From IMG/VR virus record IMGVR_UViG_2675903278_000002: a stretch of DNA of 64,000 bases. One strand, given 5' to 3'. The notes under the pieces are model-generated. The model was not told the DNA's origin. It did not search any database and saw only the letters and a program-made list of their open reading frames with translations. A program made the translations under genes and the position numbers. Origin of the DNA: a virus (Duplodnaviria > Heunggongvirae > Uroviricota > Caudoviricetes). Shown piece after piece: positions 3,002 to 43,411 of this stretch; positions within the stretch are counted from its first letter, which is position 1, and every line of letters begins with the position of its first letter.

Positions 3002-4075
3002 ATGGCAAAAGGAAAATCCGCACTGGCACTTGCTCTGAAAAAGAAAATCGGTAGCAACGACGAAATTCAGAAAGTAACTCATTGGATTGATACAGGCTTT
3101 CCACCGTTAAACAAAGCTATTTCTGGTCGTTACGATGGCGGCTTCCCATGTGGTCGTATCGTCGAAGTATTCGGTCCTCCAAGTGCAGGGAAAACGTTCC
3201 TTGCAACAGCAGCGATGATCTCCGCTCAAAAACAAGATGGTCTGGCGGTATTCCTCGATCATGAAAACAGTTTTGACGTTGGCCTGGCTGTAGCCAATGG
3301 CCTGAACGCAGATGAGGATGACGGTCAGTGGGTATACAAGCAGCCAGATACCTTCGAAGACTCTGTAGAGTTGATCGGCACAATACTTAAATTGGTTCGT
3401 GATGAAGAGCTTATCCCCGAATCAGCACCTATCTGTATCGTGGCTGACTCTCTTGCGTCTATGGTTCCGAACTCCAAAGCCGAGAAGTTCGAAAAGATGG
3501 CTGAAGGCACTGCCAAAGACAAAGATCAGCTAAACATGAACGACAATACGGCACTGGCTCGTGCGACGAGTGCGAACTTCCCTACTCTGGCTTTGTGGGC
3601 ACGCAAATACAACGCCTGCATCATCTTCTTGAATCAGGTTCGCACAAAAATCGGTGTAATGTTTGGCGACCCTACTACGTCGCCAGGTGGAGATTCACCG
3701 AAGTTCTACGCTTCTGTACGTATCCGTCTTGGTGCATCGGTGATGAAGGATGGTAAAGAGAAGATCGGCCAGGACGTAGGCGCAGAATGCATCAAAAACA
3801 AAGTTGCACCACCGTATGGCAAATGCACCTGGAAATTCTACTTCGATCCTACTCGTGGCCTCGACGTTATCGAATCGCTCGTCGAGTACATGCTGGAAGA
3901 AGGATACCTGCCAAAGAACGCCAGCGGGCGAGTTGAAATTGGTGACAAGAAATACACCAAATCGCAGATCGTTGAGATGTATCGGGAGAAGCCACTGGCT
4001 GAAATCATTGCGGCTTTGCAGGCAATCGACGACCGAAGAGCAAAAGACAACCCCACCGAGTCAGTAGAAGAGTAA
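3002..4075 (+). CDS. RecA/UvsX-like recombinase
   Basis: Walker A GPPSAGKTF, RecA-fold core, 357 aa, acidic C-terminus. Confidence 0.85.
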   Translation: MAKGKSALALALKKKIGSNDEIQKVTHWIDTGFPPLNKAISGRYDGGFPCGRIVEVFGPPSAGKTFLATAAMISAQKQDGLAVFLDHENSFDVGLAVANGLNADEDDGQWVYKQPDTFEDSVELIGTILKLVRDEELIPESAPICIVADSLASMVPNSKAEKFEKMAEGTAKDKDQLNMNDNTALARATSANFPTLALWARKYNACIIFLNQVRTKIGVMFGDPTTSPGGDSPKFYASVRIRLGASVMKDGKEKIGQDVGAECIKNKVAPPYGKCTWKFYFDPTRGLDVIESLVEYMLEEGYLPKNASGRVEIGDKKYTKSQIVEMYREKPLAEIIAALQAIDDRRAKDNPTESVEE

Positions 4076-20405: not shown

Positions 20406-20819
20406 ATGGCAAGAGGTATGTATGTCTTATGCGAAATTGAAGGTGTGCTGGCAAATGCCAGCCATCGTAAATCAGTATCTGACGCGGATGCAGGCCAGCT
20501 CATTGCCGGTGATGAACTCATTTTCCCCACCAGCCGTATGTTGCGTGGTTTTGCTCGCTCAGGGGCTGAAGTGGTGCTTATCAGTAGCCGCTCTGAAACT
20601 CTTGAAGCGCCAACTAAACGATGGCTGAAAGATTTTGGCGTTGATTATGACTGGCTTCATCTCGTACCGAATGGCACCAGTTATGAGAAGCATATTAAGC
20701 GCACATTAGCGGAGCATAAAGGCGATCTGCTTATCGCTGCGCTGGTGCACGATCCTCGACTCCGTGCCGCTTTAGCCGACTCTCACCATCGACCGGTCAT
20801 CTATGAGGTGAGCAAATGA
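20406..20819 (+). CDS. hypothetical protein
   Basis: 137 aa; ATG 2 nt after thyA stop; no canonical motif recognised. Confidence 0.45.
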   Translation: MARGMYVLCEIEGVLANASHRKSVSDADAGQLIAGDELIFPTSRMLRGFARSGAEVVLISSRSETLEAPTKRWLKDFGVDYDWLHLVPNGTSYEKHIKRTLAEHKGDLLIAALVHDPRLRAALADSHHRPVIYEVSK

Positions 20820-34825: not shown

Positions 34826-35077
34826 ATGAGCGACTGGAATATTGCAGCTAAAAGTCAGGAAGAACGGGATAAGGTTAACGTTGATCTGGCTGCCAGCGGT
34901 GTGGCGTACAAAGAGCGATTGAACATACCTGTCATAGCTGAACAGGTAGCCCGCGAGCAACCAGAGAACCTGCGCACCTATTTCATGGAACGGTTACGGC
35001 ACTACCGGCAGTTAAGCCTCCAGTTGCCAAAAGGAAGCCATCCGGTGTATCAGAACGAGGATGCACCAAGAAAATAA
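34826..35077 (+). CDS. hypothetical protein
   Basis: 83-aa ORF. Confidence 0.4.
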
Positions 35078-35453
35078 CGGCAAGATGGGGAAGACATTAA
35101 ACATGCTTAACTATCACGACAACACGCGTTCTATGCAGACAATCCGCACCAATACAGCGGTGGTCGATAGCTTTCCTGTACATACTCAAGGCCGTGAAGA
35201 TACCGTGGAAGTGCGACGCATGTTGTGTCGCCGGTCACCAGGCCACCAGCACTTCATCGTAACGTTTAAAAGCGATGTAGAGCGCGCCGAGAAAATCTCT
35301 AACTCCACATCTCTGGTTAGTCCGTTGGCGGAGGTTATTGTGCGCAACAATAAGGCGCGCTTTGTCCTTGAGGAGCATCATTCTGATTTTAATGAAAAAA
35401 TTGAGTCAAGCATTTTGCAATATATGAATGGCAAGTTCACGCCACCAATGTGA
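35061..35453 (+). CDS. hypothetical protein
   Basis: 130-aa ORF; start uncertain. Confidence 0.4.
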
Positions 35454-35514
35454 TTAGCCCCCAGCGTGGCGCGCCTGCAAACCCCGCTTTCACAAACTAT
35501 GCCTTTTCAATGTA

Positions 35515-35534
35515 TACTGTATGAATAAACAGTA
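35515..35534 (+). promoter_or_regulatory. LexA (SOS) box
   Basis: TACTGTATGAATAAACAGTA matches CTGT-N8-ACAG consensus; ~20 nt upstream of the UmuD-prime-like start. Confidence 0.75.
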
Positions 35535-35552
35535 TCATTGAGGTAAAACGCT

Positions 35553-35942
35553 ATGGGCTTCCCTTCTCCTGCGGCGGATTATGCAGAGAGCCGTATTTCT
35601 CTTGATCAGCAACTAATCAGACATCCTTCAGCGACCTACTTCATGCGGGCAGCTGATAGTCATCATCGTGAGGGAATATTACAGGGTGCATTGCTGGTGG
35701 TCGATTCCTCACTTACCCCGGTTGATGGTTCTCTGCTTGTATGCGCTCTGGATGGGGAATATCGCGTAAAAAGATACCGGAAGTACCCACGTCAGCATCT
35801 GGAGGATTTAAGAACCGGTAAGAAGGAAGCATTGCCAAAGGATGACGATGGATGCACGGGCAGCAATGCCGTGTTTGGTGTGATCACTCACATTATCAAC
35901 GACGCAAGAAGTGGCGAGTTTGATGATTGTCCCGTGATGTAG
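35553..35942 (+). CDS. UmuD-prime-like protein (S24 peptidase fold, begins at the position of processed UmuD)
   Basis: N-terminus MGFPSPAADYAE corresponds to UmuD residues just after the autocleavage site; QLIRHPSATYF, ADS and VK motifs retained. Confidence 0.8.
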   Translation: MGFPSPAADYAESRISLDQQLIRHPSATYFMRAADSHHREGILQGALLVVDSSLTPVDGSLLVCALDGEYRVKRYRKYPRQHLEDLRTGKKEALPKDDDGCTGSNAVFGVITHIINDARSGEFDDCPVM

Positions 35943-35953
35943 GAGAACTGATT

Positions 35954-35979
35954 AGGCGGTGCATTGCACCGCCTTTTTA
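35954..35979. terminator. bidirectional terminator between UmuD-prime-like gene and apbC
   Basis: AGGCGGTGC-ATT-GCACCGCCT hairpin flanked by A/T runs. Confidence 0.65.
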
Positions 35980-37080
35980 TCACACTGCGCGGAATGCGAT
36001 TTCGCCAGGTATTACTTCACCTTGCCAATACATTTGGGCAGCAACGCGATCTGCGAGGTCACGATAAATAGCCGTAAATTCGCTATCTGGACGACTAATA
36101 ACGGTTGGTGTTCCGTTATCCAGATCTTCACGAAGAGAGATATGAAGTGGCATTTGGCCTAACAACTGCGTGTTGTATTTCTCGGCCAGTTTCTGTGCGC
36201 CACCGGTGCCAAAAATTGGCTCGTGATGACCGCAGTTACTGCAAATATGCACACTCATGTTTTCGACGATACCCAGTACCGGCACTTCGACTTTTTCGAA
36301 CATCACAATGCCTTTCTTCGCATCGATCAGCGCGATGTCTTGCGGCGTAGTTACCACAACCGCACCAGTTACAGGAATGTTCTGCGCCAGCGTCAACTGA
36401 ATATCACCAGTGCCCGGCGGCATATCGAGAACGAGATAGTCCAGATCAGGCCATAGAGTTTCCTGCAACATCTGCATCAGCGCCTTGCTGGCCATCGGTC
36501 CACGCCACACCATTGCATTGTCGTCGGTGACCAGATAACCAATAGAGTTGGTTGCCAGGCCATGAGACATGATAGGTGCCATGTGAGTACCGTCCGGTGA
36601 GGTTGGACGTTGGTTTTCCGCGCCCAGCATGGTTGGAATTGATGGACCATAGATATCGGCATCCAAAATACCAACTTTCGCACCTTCAGCAGCCAACGCC
36701 AGTGCCAGATTTACCGCCGTGGAGGATTTACCTACGCCGCCCTTGCCTGAGCTGACGGCGATAATGTTCTTAACGCCATTAATGCCTGGTTGGTTTTTGA
36801 CGCGCTTAAGCGTGGCAATGTTGTACGACAGCTTCCAGTCAATAGCCTTTGCGCCAGTGATACGGAGCAGATCACCACTACATTGCTCTTTCAGGTCTTC
36901 AAAAGGCTTATTCCACACGAAAGGCATGATTAGTTCGACATGCAGTGTGTCATCCATCAACGCAACATGGTGTAACGCTTTAAGCGTAGTCAGGTTGTGT
37001 TTCAGGGTTGGGTGCTGAAAATTAGCCAGCGTACCGGCTACCATTGCTCTCAGGGCATCCGGCGATTTGGACTCGCTCAT
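35980..37080 (-). CDS. apbC: Fe-S cluster carrier ATPase ApbC/Mrp
   Basis: 366 aa; near-identical to enterobacterial Mrp as recalled (SGKGGVGKS P-loop, CSNCGH motif); divergent from metG as in E. coli. Confidence 0.9.
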   Translation of the reverse strand: MSESKSPDALRAMVAGTLANFQHPTLKHNLTTLKALHHVALMDDTLHVELIMPFVWNKPFEDLKEQCSGDLLRITGAKAIDWKLSYNIATLKRVKNQPGINGVKNIIAVSSGKGGVGKSSTAVNLALALAAEGAKVGILDADIYGPSIPTMLGAENQRPTSPDGTHMAPIMSHGLATNSIGYLVTDDNAMVWRGPMASKALMQMLQETLWPDLDYLVLDMPPGTGDIQLTLAQNIPVTGAVVVTTPQDIALIDAKKGIVMFEKVEVPVLGIVENMSVHICSNCGHHEPIFGTGGAQKLAEKYNTQLLGQMPLHISLREDLDNGTPTVISRPDSEFTAIYRDLADRVAAQMYWQGEVIPGEIAFRAV

Positions 37081-37236: not shown

Positions 37237-39271
37237 TATGACCCAAGTCGCGAAGAAAATTCTGGTGACGTGCGCGCTGCCGTACGCTAACGGCTCAATC
37301 CACCTCGGCCATATGCTGGAGCACATCCAGGCTGATGTCTGGGTTCGTTACCAGCGAATGCGCGGCCACGAGGTTAATTTCATCTGTGCCGACGATGCCC
37401 ACGGTACGCCGATCATGCTGAAAGCACAGCAGCTTGGTATCACACCGGAGCAGATGATTGGCGAAATGAGTCAGGAACACCAGACTGATTTCGCAGGCTT
37501 TAACATCAGCTATGACAACTATCACTCGACGCACAGCGAAGAGAACCGTCAGTTGTCTGAGCTTATCTATACTCGCCTGAAAGAGAACGGTTTTATTAAA
37601 AACCGCACTATCTCTCAGTTGTACGACCCGGAAAAAGGCATGTTCCTGCCGGATCGTTTTGTAAAAGGCACCTGCCCGAAATGTAAAGCGCCAGATCAAT
37701 ACGGCGATAACTGTGAAGTCTGCGGCGCAACATATAGCCCGACTGAATTGATCGAGCCGAAATCGGTGGTTTCTGGCGCTACCCCGGTAATGCGTGATTC
37801 CGAACACTTCTTCTTTGATCTGCCTTCTTTCAGCGAAATGTTGCAGGCATGGACCCGCAGCGGCGCGTTGCAGGAGCAGGTGGCGAACAAAATGCAGGAA
37901 TGGTTTGAATCCGGCCTGCAACAGTGGGATATCTCCCGAGATGCGCCTTACTTCGGTTTTGAAATTCCGAACGCGCCGGGCAAATATTTCTACGTCTGGC
38001 TGGACGCGCCGATTGGCTACATGGGTTCCTTCAAGAATCTGTGCGACAAGCGCGGCGATACCACCAGCTTCGATGAATACTGGAAGAAAGACTCCACCGC
38101 CGAGCTGTACCACTTCATCGGTAAAGATATTGTTTACTTCCACAGCCTGTTCTGGCCTGCCATGCTGGAAGGCAGCAACTTCCGCAAGCCGACCAACCTG
38201 TTTGTTCACGGCTATGTGACGGTGAACGGCGCGAAGATGTCCAAGTCTCGCGGCACCTTTATTAAAGCCAGCACCTGGCTGAATCATTTTGACGCCGACA
38301 GCCTGCGTTACTACTACACTGCGAAACTCTCTTCGCGCATTGATGATATCGATCTCAACCTGGAGGATTTCGTTCAGCGCGTGAATGCCGATATCGTGAA
38401 CAAAGTGGTTAACCTGGCCTCCCGTAATGCAGGCTTTATCAACAAGCGTTTTGACGGCGTGCTGGCAAGCGAACTGGCTGACCCGCAACTGTACAAAACC
38501 TTTACTGATGCCGCTGAAGTGATTGGCGAAGCATGGGAAAGCCGCGAATTTGGTAAAGCTATCCGTGAAATCATGGCATTGGCTGACCTGGCTAACCGCT
38601 ATGTCGATGAACAGGCTCCGTGGGTGGTGGCGAAGCAGGAAGGACGCGATGCCGATCTGCAGGCGATTTGCTCTATGGGCATTAACCTGTTCCGCGTGCT
38701 GATGACGTACCTGAAGCCGGTACTGCCGAAACTGACTGAACGTGCAGAAGCATTCCTGAATACAGAACTGACCTGGGATGGTATCCAGCAACCGCTGCTG
38801 GGCCATAAAGTAAATCCGTTCAAGGCACTGTATAACCGCATCGATATGAAGCAGGTTGAAGCACTGGTGGAAGCATCCAAAGAAGAAGTGAAAGCCACAG
38901 CCGCACCGGTAACTGGCCCACTGGCTGACGACCCGATTCAGGAAACTATCACCTTTGACGACTTCGCCAAAGTTGACCTGCGCGTGGCGCTGATTGAAAA
39001 CGCAGAGTTTGTAGAAGGTTCTGACAAACTGCTTCGCCTGACGCTGGATCTCGGTGGTGAAAAGCGTAATGTCTTCTCAGGCATCCGTTCCGCTTATCCA
39101 GATCCACAGGCACTGATTGGTCGTCACACCATTATGGTGGCTAACCTGGCACCACGTAAAATGCGCTTCGGTATCTCTGAAGGCATGGTGATGGCTGCTG
39201 GCCCCGGCGGGAAAGATATCTTCCTGTTAAGCCCGGATGCTGGTGCTAAACCTGGCCACCAGGTTAAGTAA
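37237..39271 (+). CDS. metG: methionyl-tRNA synthetase
   Basis: 677 aa from [10 protein letters not shown]; HIGH-type [12 protein letters not shown] and KMSKS motifs; near-identical to E. coli MetG as recalled; large antisense ORF 37295..38806 rejected. Confidence 0.95.
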
Positions 39272-43099: not shown

Positions 43100-43411
43100 A
43101 TGAAAAAATCATTGGTTCTTGGTCTGGACAAAGACCAGAAGAGAAAAGAGAAGCCTGCGCTGGTTGCTCAATTAACTTTGCTGGACATCGTTGCCAATGG
43201 AACCTCTATTCGTCTGTTCCGTGAAACAGCGGTGTCTTTCGATAAAAACACCTTTACTCGTTATGTAATGAATGTTCGTCGCCAGCGTGGAAAAGGCTGG
43301 GTGGCATTTCAAAGAATGTGGCCGGAACATCAGCTCGAACTGGCTTTGATGGAAGTTAACCGCGTGGCCCAGCAAGAGATTCAGAGAGCATCAGTGATGG
43401 CAATAGCCTGA
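43100..43411 (+). CDS. hypothetical protein (cassette)
   Basis: 103 aa from ATG 43100; motif A at 43072-43090; upstream ~65 bp homologous to the 42541-42606 region. Confidence 0.5.
   Translation: MKKSLVLGLDKDQKRKEKPALVAQLTLLDIVANGTSIRLFRETAVSFDKNTFTRYVMNVRRQRGKGWVAFQRMWPEHQLELALMEVNRVAQQEIQRASVMAIA

Follow-up and report, generated by a model that had tools for sequence, protein, structure and literature searches.

MucA, RumA, and ImpA, the UmuD homologs that plasmids and ICEs encode in mucAB, rumAB, and impCAB operons, are S24 accessory subunits of Pol V-like polymerases under SOS control, and activation of Pol V-type polymerases requires a RecA filament. In phage P1, humD is an SOS gene under LexA regulation (PMC9603915), and plaques form without it (PMC10695390). 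The title of McLenigan et al. 1999 (J Bacteriol 181:7005; PMC94175) speaks of functional homology and of the facilitation of SOS mutagenesis. The P1 reference record describes humD as 'DNA repair; functionally complements E. coli UmuD'' and labels a 20-mer upstream of it 'LexA binding site in the regulatory region of lxr and humD'; searching the text of the P1 Ref paper for LexA turned up nothing about humD regulation. P1 HumD is said to dimerise and to bind both UmuC and RecA filaments, and complementation was reportedly best at, or dependent on, high copy number, native expression being poor. The gene, its control by LexA, and the pre-activated form of its product are thus already known, having been described for P1 since the 1990s, and a curated NCBI model names the protein.

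Here, we describe a humD gene on a 64-kb stretch of viral DNA (the window), compare its product, control region, and surroundings with those of known relatives, and weigh what the gene may do for the element that carries it.

Family membership and truncation point

The gene was located from the open reading frame list and from matches to NF051876, Pfam, and phrog_811, and the tail codons from alignments:

35553..35942, plus strand: humD, encoding a pre-truncated UmuD' homolog of 129 aa with the start MGFPSPAADYAE
35910..35939, plus strand: codons for the C-terminal tail SGEFDDCPVM (residues 120-129), which is absent from UmuD

The protein matched the NCBIfam equivalog NF051876, 'HumD family translesion DNA polymerase', at 219.7 bits (cutoff 120), with residues 1-129 on profile positions 1-129, and stayed under the cutoffs of the UmuD subfamily model (87.9 bits; cutoff 110) and of the TIGR00498 lexA model, which it matched over the C-terminal domain only (27.9 bits; cutoff 110.95). 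Pfam assigned it to Peptidase_S24, and its PHROG match was phrog_811, 'UmuD-like'. The closest solved structures by sequence were UmuD' (1umu, E 3.5e-23) and UmuD, and a Foldseek search with an AlphaFold model of HumD (mean pLDDT 69.9, core near 85; one of five models reasonable) returned the same UmuD' entries as its top PDB matches. RefSeq likewise uses the name 'HumD family translesion DNA polymerase' for WP_053272004.1, which sits on an E. coli plasmid 100% identical to the window over 35000-36100.

Searches of phage records with tblastn placed the protein closest to those of Escherichia phages Cyrano, CMS-2020a, and PhiR41_1 (98-99% amino-acid identity), followed by HumD of P1, P7, D6, SJ46, and RCS47 (92-93%) and by N15 gp26, phiKO2 Gp23, and the HK140 and HK639 homologs (65-71%). 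At the nucleotide level, 35500-35941 is 86% identical to P1, a segment that takes in operator, ribosome-binding site, and the whole gene. A full-length profile match, an M-GFPSP start, the lack of umuC, and a predicted LexA operator, the traits by which we recognized the HumD family, all occur together at this locus. By sequence, the gene at 35553-35942 is an ortholog of P1 humD and an ordinary copy of a known gene. The initial annotation had called it a UmuD-prime homolog, which alignment to UmuD and HumD bore out, and had seen the P1 gene as analogous; the relation to P1 is real, but at 92% amino-acid and 86% nucleotide identity 'analogous' understates it, the two being the same gene.

An in-frame TAA lies 9 nt upstream of the humD ATG, so that the reading frame cannot be extended and no N-terminal arm can be encoded. 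In alignments, Gly2 of HumD falls on Gly25 of E. coli UmuD, the first residue of UmuD', which agrees with the earlier reading that the protein starts just past the UmuD autocleavage site. The cleavable Ala/Cys-Gly bond that stands behind an arm or domain in self-cleaving S24 proteins is absent, as the protein begins at the Gly. The catalytic Ser60 and Lys97 of UmuD have Ser36 and Lys73 as their counterparts in HumD. Pairwise and multiple alignments with UmuD led us to reject an insertion of ~25 aa that had been proposed near the C terminus: they contain a 1-residue deletion before the Ser, a net insertion of 4 residues in a region of low conservation (residues ~76-105), and a C-terminal extension of 10 residues.

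LexA operator and transcription signals

The control signals around the gene are as follows:

35489..35518, plus strand: predicted sigma-70-like promoter (-35 TTCACA, 18-nt spacer, -10 TATACT; 10/12 in a consensus scan)
35515..35534, no strand assigned: predicted LexA operator (SOS box) TACTGTATGAATAAACAGTA, its letters read directly
35540..35543, plus strand: ribosome-binding site GAGG, read from the sequence, 9 nt before the ATG and conserved in P1
35954..35981, plus strand: intrinsic-terminator-like hairpin (9 bp, 7 of them G-C, then TTTTTAT)

The operator matches the palindromic consensus TACTGTATATATATACAGTA at 17 of 20 positions with both half-sites intact, and is the sole site within 3 mismatches of that consensus on either strand of the 64-kb window; none of 100 dinucleotide-preserving shuffles contained such a site. 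We found no convincing further SOS box in the window, where the looser CTGT-N8-ACAG core occurs just once more, at 43214, no more than chance would give. At 35515-35534 a near-consensus CTGT-N8-ACAG site thus lies over a promoter-like sequence, the predicted -10 hexamer (which ends at 35518) sharing its bases with the first 4 of the box, and we regard the site as a predicted LexA operator in the humD promoter region. The LexA box of the initial annotation is therefore upheld at its exact position, and its distance to the 129-aa protein, given there as ~20 nt, is 18 nt from the end of the box to the ATG. The homologous P1 operator, TACTGTATAAATGAACAGTA, occupies P1 87545-87564, and the phiKO2 record also annotates a LexA site before its HumD homolog. 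The predicted -35 lies outside the segment common to the window, P1, and Cyrano.

No divergent lxr-like gene shares the operator: 35081-35499 is unrelated to P1 lxr, and its minus-strand ORFs are of just 48 and 54 aa. At the other end of the gene, the terminator-like hairpin starts 12 nt past the humD stop, between the stop and a host-like block at 35984, and falls outside both the P1 homology, which ends at 35941, and the homology to the E. coli chromosome.

Conservation among phage homologs

We compared 10 phage homologs for their start and upstream box. All 10 start M/V-[G/E]FPSP, and a CTG-N10-CAG box precedes 9 of the genes; its distance to the start codon is 32-37 nt in 8 of these and 62 nt in phiKO2. 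The exception is HK140, where no box is present and the gene directly abuts a small upstream ORF. As the flanks of the boxes are unrelated among these homologs, the box itself is the conserved element. On a broader scale, among the matches listed (120 of 578 clusters), protein length ranged over 97-223 aa with 100 of the 120 clusters at 126-130 aa, and GFPSP stood at residue 2 in 106 of the 120; the longer cluster proteins have an internal M-GFPSP behind unrelated upstream read-through.

The catalytic positions are less stable. In an alignment of 121 sequences (the 120 listed clusters plus the query), the Ser36 position was S in 79, T in 40, and A in 2, with Tyr in Hafnia phages, and the Lys73 position was Lys in 118, with Met in HK639 and Arg in Hafnia phages. 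The residue before the Ser, Asp here, is R, C, A, or D among relatives, and the motif of the window protein reads ADSH where UmuD has G-D-S-M. The dyad noted at first sight as retained is indeed present as Ser36 and Lys73, but it is not conserved in the family, where about one third of the close relatives have Thr and the Hafnia phages Tyr; because of this lack of conservation, its presence here is no evidence of activity and the dyad looks vestigial. Such variation would be expected if selection on an unused protease site had relaxed.

Remnants of humD were also encountered, mostly unannotated and in phages of the prophage type. In BTP1 (L012 1501-1873) the gene is frameshifted, leaving a 28-aa ORF and a tblastn match in two pieces, and in APC_JM3.2 (L013 1501-1884) it is shortened to 98 aa; LexA-like boxes are still upstream in both. 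Stx-converting phages (hits H94-H100), mEp234, and Sf101 have just the C-terminal two thirds of humD left.

The carrier element and the humD neighborhood

Over most of its length, the window shares 99.2-99.8% identity with E. coli E03 plasmid p2 (109,854 bp, circular); between about 41.1 and 47.8 kb the figure is 91-98%. A frameshifted ISEc52 in this closest plasmid (NZ_JBUZKL010000003.1 98630-99879) is absent from the window at 2707-2709. The plasmid encodes virion proteins (terminase, portal, capsid, tape measure, tail), maintenance functions (repA and ParB-family partition genes), and a set of DNA metabolism proteins comprising DnaE, a DnaB-like helicase, ligase, a RecA homolog, nrdAB, thymidylate synthase, and dfrA51. 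As dfrA51 is a marker described for the Salmonella phage-plasmid SSU5 and its relatives (PMC12217456), we assign the element to the SSU5-type phage-plasmids (~110 kb), not to the P1-like ones. By the RefSeq annotation of the near-identical plasmid, dfrA51, a trimethoprim-resistance gene, lies at about 20810-21290 of the window on the plus strand in a cluster with nrdA, nrdB, and thymidylate synthase. A 357-aa ORF at 3002-4075 on the plus strand corresponds to the 'recombinase RecA' annotated on the same plasmid, so that an element-encoded RecA homolog accompanies the element-encoded UmuD' analogue.

No umuC was found in the 64-kb window by tblastn with an approximate UmuC query and with a UmuC N-terminal fragment from a database match, and no Y-family polymerase is annotated in the 109.8-kb near-identical plasmid. 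The early observation that no umuC follows humD therefore stands, and the next gene, apbC, is convergent. The genes flanking humD are:

34826-35077, upstream of humD: theta-subunit homolog (Pfam DNA_pol3_theta), sharing 93% DNA identity with P1 hot
35061-35453, plus strand: 130-aa ORF (phrog_2594, no Pfam match), sharing 17 nt with the 3' end of the theta homolog
35980-37080, minus strand: apbC (mrp), convergent to humD, in the host-like block
37238-39271, plus strand: metG (methionyl-tRNA synthetase), in the host-like block

The 130-aa ORF takes the place of the divergent LexA-regulated lxr of P1, to which it is unrelated. The apbC-metG block matches the E. coli chromosome at ~90% identity between 35984/35987 and 39272 and begins 42 nt after the humD stop; humD had been placed at the boundary of a captured host block, and these coordinates agree, with humD itself outside. 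On a phage-plasmid, the block amounts to a second copy of host genes; it is 98% conserved in phage Cyrano, and in complete E. coli genomes it occurs at 226 places on plasmids. A literature search for apbC-metG as cargo of SSU5-type phage-plasmids gave, among the matches listed, none joining 'SSU5' and 'metG'.

Homology to P1 begins at 35500 and the Cyrano junction falls at 35506. Since both junctions lie just upstream of the operator, operator and humD appear to recombine as a cassette. The same cassette is flanked by hot and phd-doc in a Salmonella P1-like element, at the end of an Enterobacter prophage where it adjoins host yedD, and beside dinI, tail-fibre, integrase, or partition genes in phiKO2, N15, HK140, and HK639. 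The LexA box and humD would accordingly move as a unit among temperate elements that are unrelated to one another: P1-like, N15-like, lambdoid, P22-like, and, as seen here, SSU5-type.

A conserved C-terminal tail

Each of the residues E122, F123, D124, D125, C126, P127, and V128 recurs in 109-118 of the 121 aligned sequences (the clusters among the matches listed, with the query), and 117 of the 121 end in M, I, or L. A homolog at 44% overall identity still ends in the variant SEFDDNPCM. The tail is, on these alignments, the best-conserved part of the HumD family, and appears to be under strong constraint. The family therefore seems to combine a decaying catalytic site with a strongly constrained extra tail. 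When 50%-identity representatives with both landmarks present were compared, an acidic-aromatic tail was found in 5 of 15 pre-truncated proteins versus 0 of 42 arm-bearing ones (Fisher p = 7e-4). The tail is thus confined to pre-truncated homologs, and these have no umuC partner. In the AlphaFold model the tail has low pLDDT (mean 46 over residues 121-129; <50 for 126-129).

The C-terminal tip of E. coli SSB reads ...DFDDDIPF-COOH. The tail consensus of HumD, ...[S/N]GEFDDCPV[M/I/L]-COOH, resembles that layout, and divergent family members, which end ...EFDDTPF and ...FEFHDNLPF, come closer still. It is conceivable, though we think it improbable, that the tail is a short docking motif that mimics the SSB tip and either recruits HumD-UmuC to SSB partners or competes with SSB. 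If true, such mimicry would be a property of phage HumD that host UmuD' lacks. In either case, the tail is not explained by a simple model of HumD as a UmuD' substitute; it is the residual novelty of this locus and the sole lead worth an experiment.

Proposed role of HumD and alternatives

We propose that HumD is a LexA-repressed, damage-induced, ready-made UmuD' analogue that dimerises, recruits host UmuC, and bypasses the delay of RecA-dependent cleavage, a reading in which we have high confidence. In an undamaged cell, host LexA would sit on the operator over the -10 and start region of the humD promoter and keep the gene off. Upon DNA damage, activated RecA would trigger self-cleavage of LexA, and humD would be transcribed as a single-gene unit, with transcription probably ending at the hairpin downstream of the gene. 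Once the initiator Met is removed, HumD would begin GFPSPAADY..., the N terminus of cleaved UmuD. HumD would skip post-translational activation, since it is made with the N terminus that UmuD gains only by slow RecA-stimulated self-cleavage. The HumD dimer would then form a Pol V-like translesion polymerase with UmuC, presumably that of the host because the element has none of its own, and the expected result is more damage tolerance and more mutagenesis of lysogen and element DNA early in the SOS response. The gene, its operator, the promoter-like site, the truncation point, the family membership, and the lack of umuC are features of this locus itself. UmuD' complementation, dimerisation, and binding to UmuC and RecA filaments are drawn from the 92%-identical P1 protein, and HumD of the window would be expected to behave in the same way. 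The initial annotation had already interpreted the gene as an SOS-controlled, pre-truncated UmuD-prime, and family, fold, and P1 annotation all favor that interpretation. An error-prone-synthesis shortcut of this kind, on widespread phage-plasmids with a trimethoprim-resistance gene, may matter for the mutation supply of clinical E. coli.

Several points weigh against this explanation. P1 humD is dispensable for plaque formation, which bears on the benefit to the element; the promoter is a consensus match only, with its -35 outside the segment shared with P1 and Cyrano; and the invariant tail is absent from UmuD'. The tail is also one of the observations that would suit HumD as mainly a modulator of the replisome or of SOS timing, binding Pol III alpha, beta, or epsilon or heterodimerising with host UmuD and so tuning replication restart, as it suggests a partner that UmuD' does not have. 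Products of umuD bind the alpha, beta, and epsilon subunits of Pol III, humD is linked to the theta homolog hot in P1, in the Salmonella P1-like element, and in the window, and genes for DnaE, a DnaB-like helicase, a RecA homolog, and ligase are present on the near-identical plasmid. The linkage does not hold in Cyrano, however, which has the same humD without hot or the 130-aa ORF upstream, and in lambdoid and P22-like prophages the surroundings of humD contain no replisome genes; together with the reported complementation of UmuD' by P1 HumD, this leaves the replisome role unlikely.

Still less probable, and in our view very doubtful, is an active S24 serine protease that acts in trans, through Ser36 and Lys73, on another protein such as host UmuD, LexA, or a phage repressor. 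UmuD cleavage can occur intermolecularly, both residues align with the UmuD dyad, and Lys73 is kept in 118 of 121 close relatives, but GDSM has degraded to ADSH, and the replacements of the Ser by Thr (40/121), Ala (2/121), or Tyr (Hafnia) and of the Lys by Met (HK639) or Arg (Hafnia) are hard to square with a working protease. Finally, the gene might be a decayed fragment of a LexA/CI-type repressor or of a full-length umuD, as its weak similarity to LexA C-terminal domains and the humD remnants of BTP1, APC_JM3.2, and the Stx phages could suggest. Such a pseudogene is effectively refuted. The ORF is intact, matches the HumD model over its full length, and scores far under the lexA cutoff; no coding sequence lies upstream in frame; it has its own ribosome-binding site, promoter-like site, operator, and terminator-like hairpin; the same start and a length of 126-130 aa recur in 100 of 120 clusters among the matches listed; and the 92%-identical P1 protein is reported functional. 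A repressor C-terminal fragment was the outcome that the initial annotation had named as fatal to its reading, and we rejected it on these grounds.

Comparison with known systems

The closest described system is humD of P1 (P1_gp103), whose product, like HumD of the window, has 129 aa, an M-GFPSP start, and the same C-terminal tail, at 92% identity. The homologous LexA box lies 19 nt before the ATG in P1 and 18 nt before it in the window, the ribosome-binding site is the same, neither element has a umuC partner, and in both a theta homolog (hot in P1) lies upstream of humD. The carriers differ, P1 being a Punavirus whereas the window comes from an SSU5-type siphovirus-like phage-plasmid. The surroundings differ as well: P1 has the divergent lxr where the window has an unrelated same-strand ORF of 130 aa, and downstream of humD stand phd-doc in P1 and the apbC-metG block in the window.

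More distant phage relatives, namely N15 gp26, phiKO2 Gp23, and the homologs of HK140, HK639, and Hafnia phages, share with HumD the pre-truncated start, the same tail, and, mostly, the LexA box, and are likewise single-gene accessory units at module or prophage ends. They are 44-71% identical to HumD of the window, have the catalytic Ser replaced by Thr or Tyr, and in some cases are arranged divergently with dinI.

E. coli UmuD' has the same fold as HumD at 45% identity, with the Ser/Lys positions present in both and with SOS (LexA) control, predicted in the case of HumD, in both. HumD is made directly, without an arm and outside a umuC operon, whereas UmuD' has to arise by RecA-stimulated self-cleavage, and the degenerate GDSM motif, the 4 extra internal residues, and the 10-residue acidic tail are all particular to HumD. 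MucA, RumA, and ImpA (of mucAB, rumAB, and impCAB) are, as proposed for HumD, SOS-controlled S24 accessory subunits of Pol V-like polymerases on mobile elements; in contrast to HumD, which is pre-cleaved and has no partner gene, they are full length, need cleavage, and are encoded together with a UmuC-type polymerase of their own.
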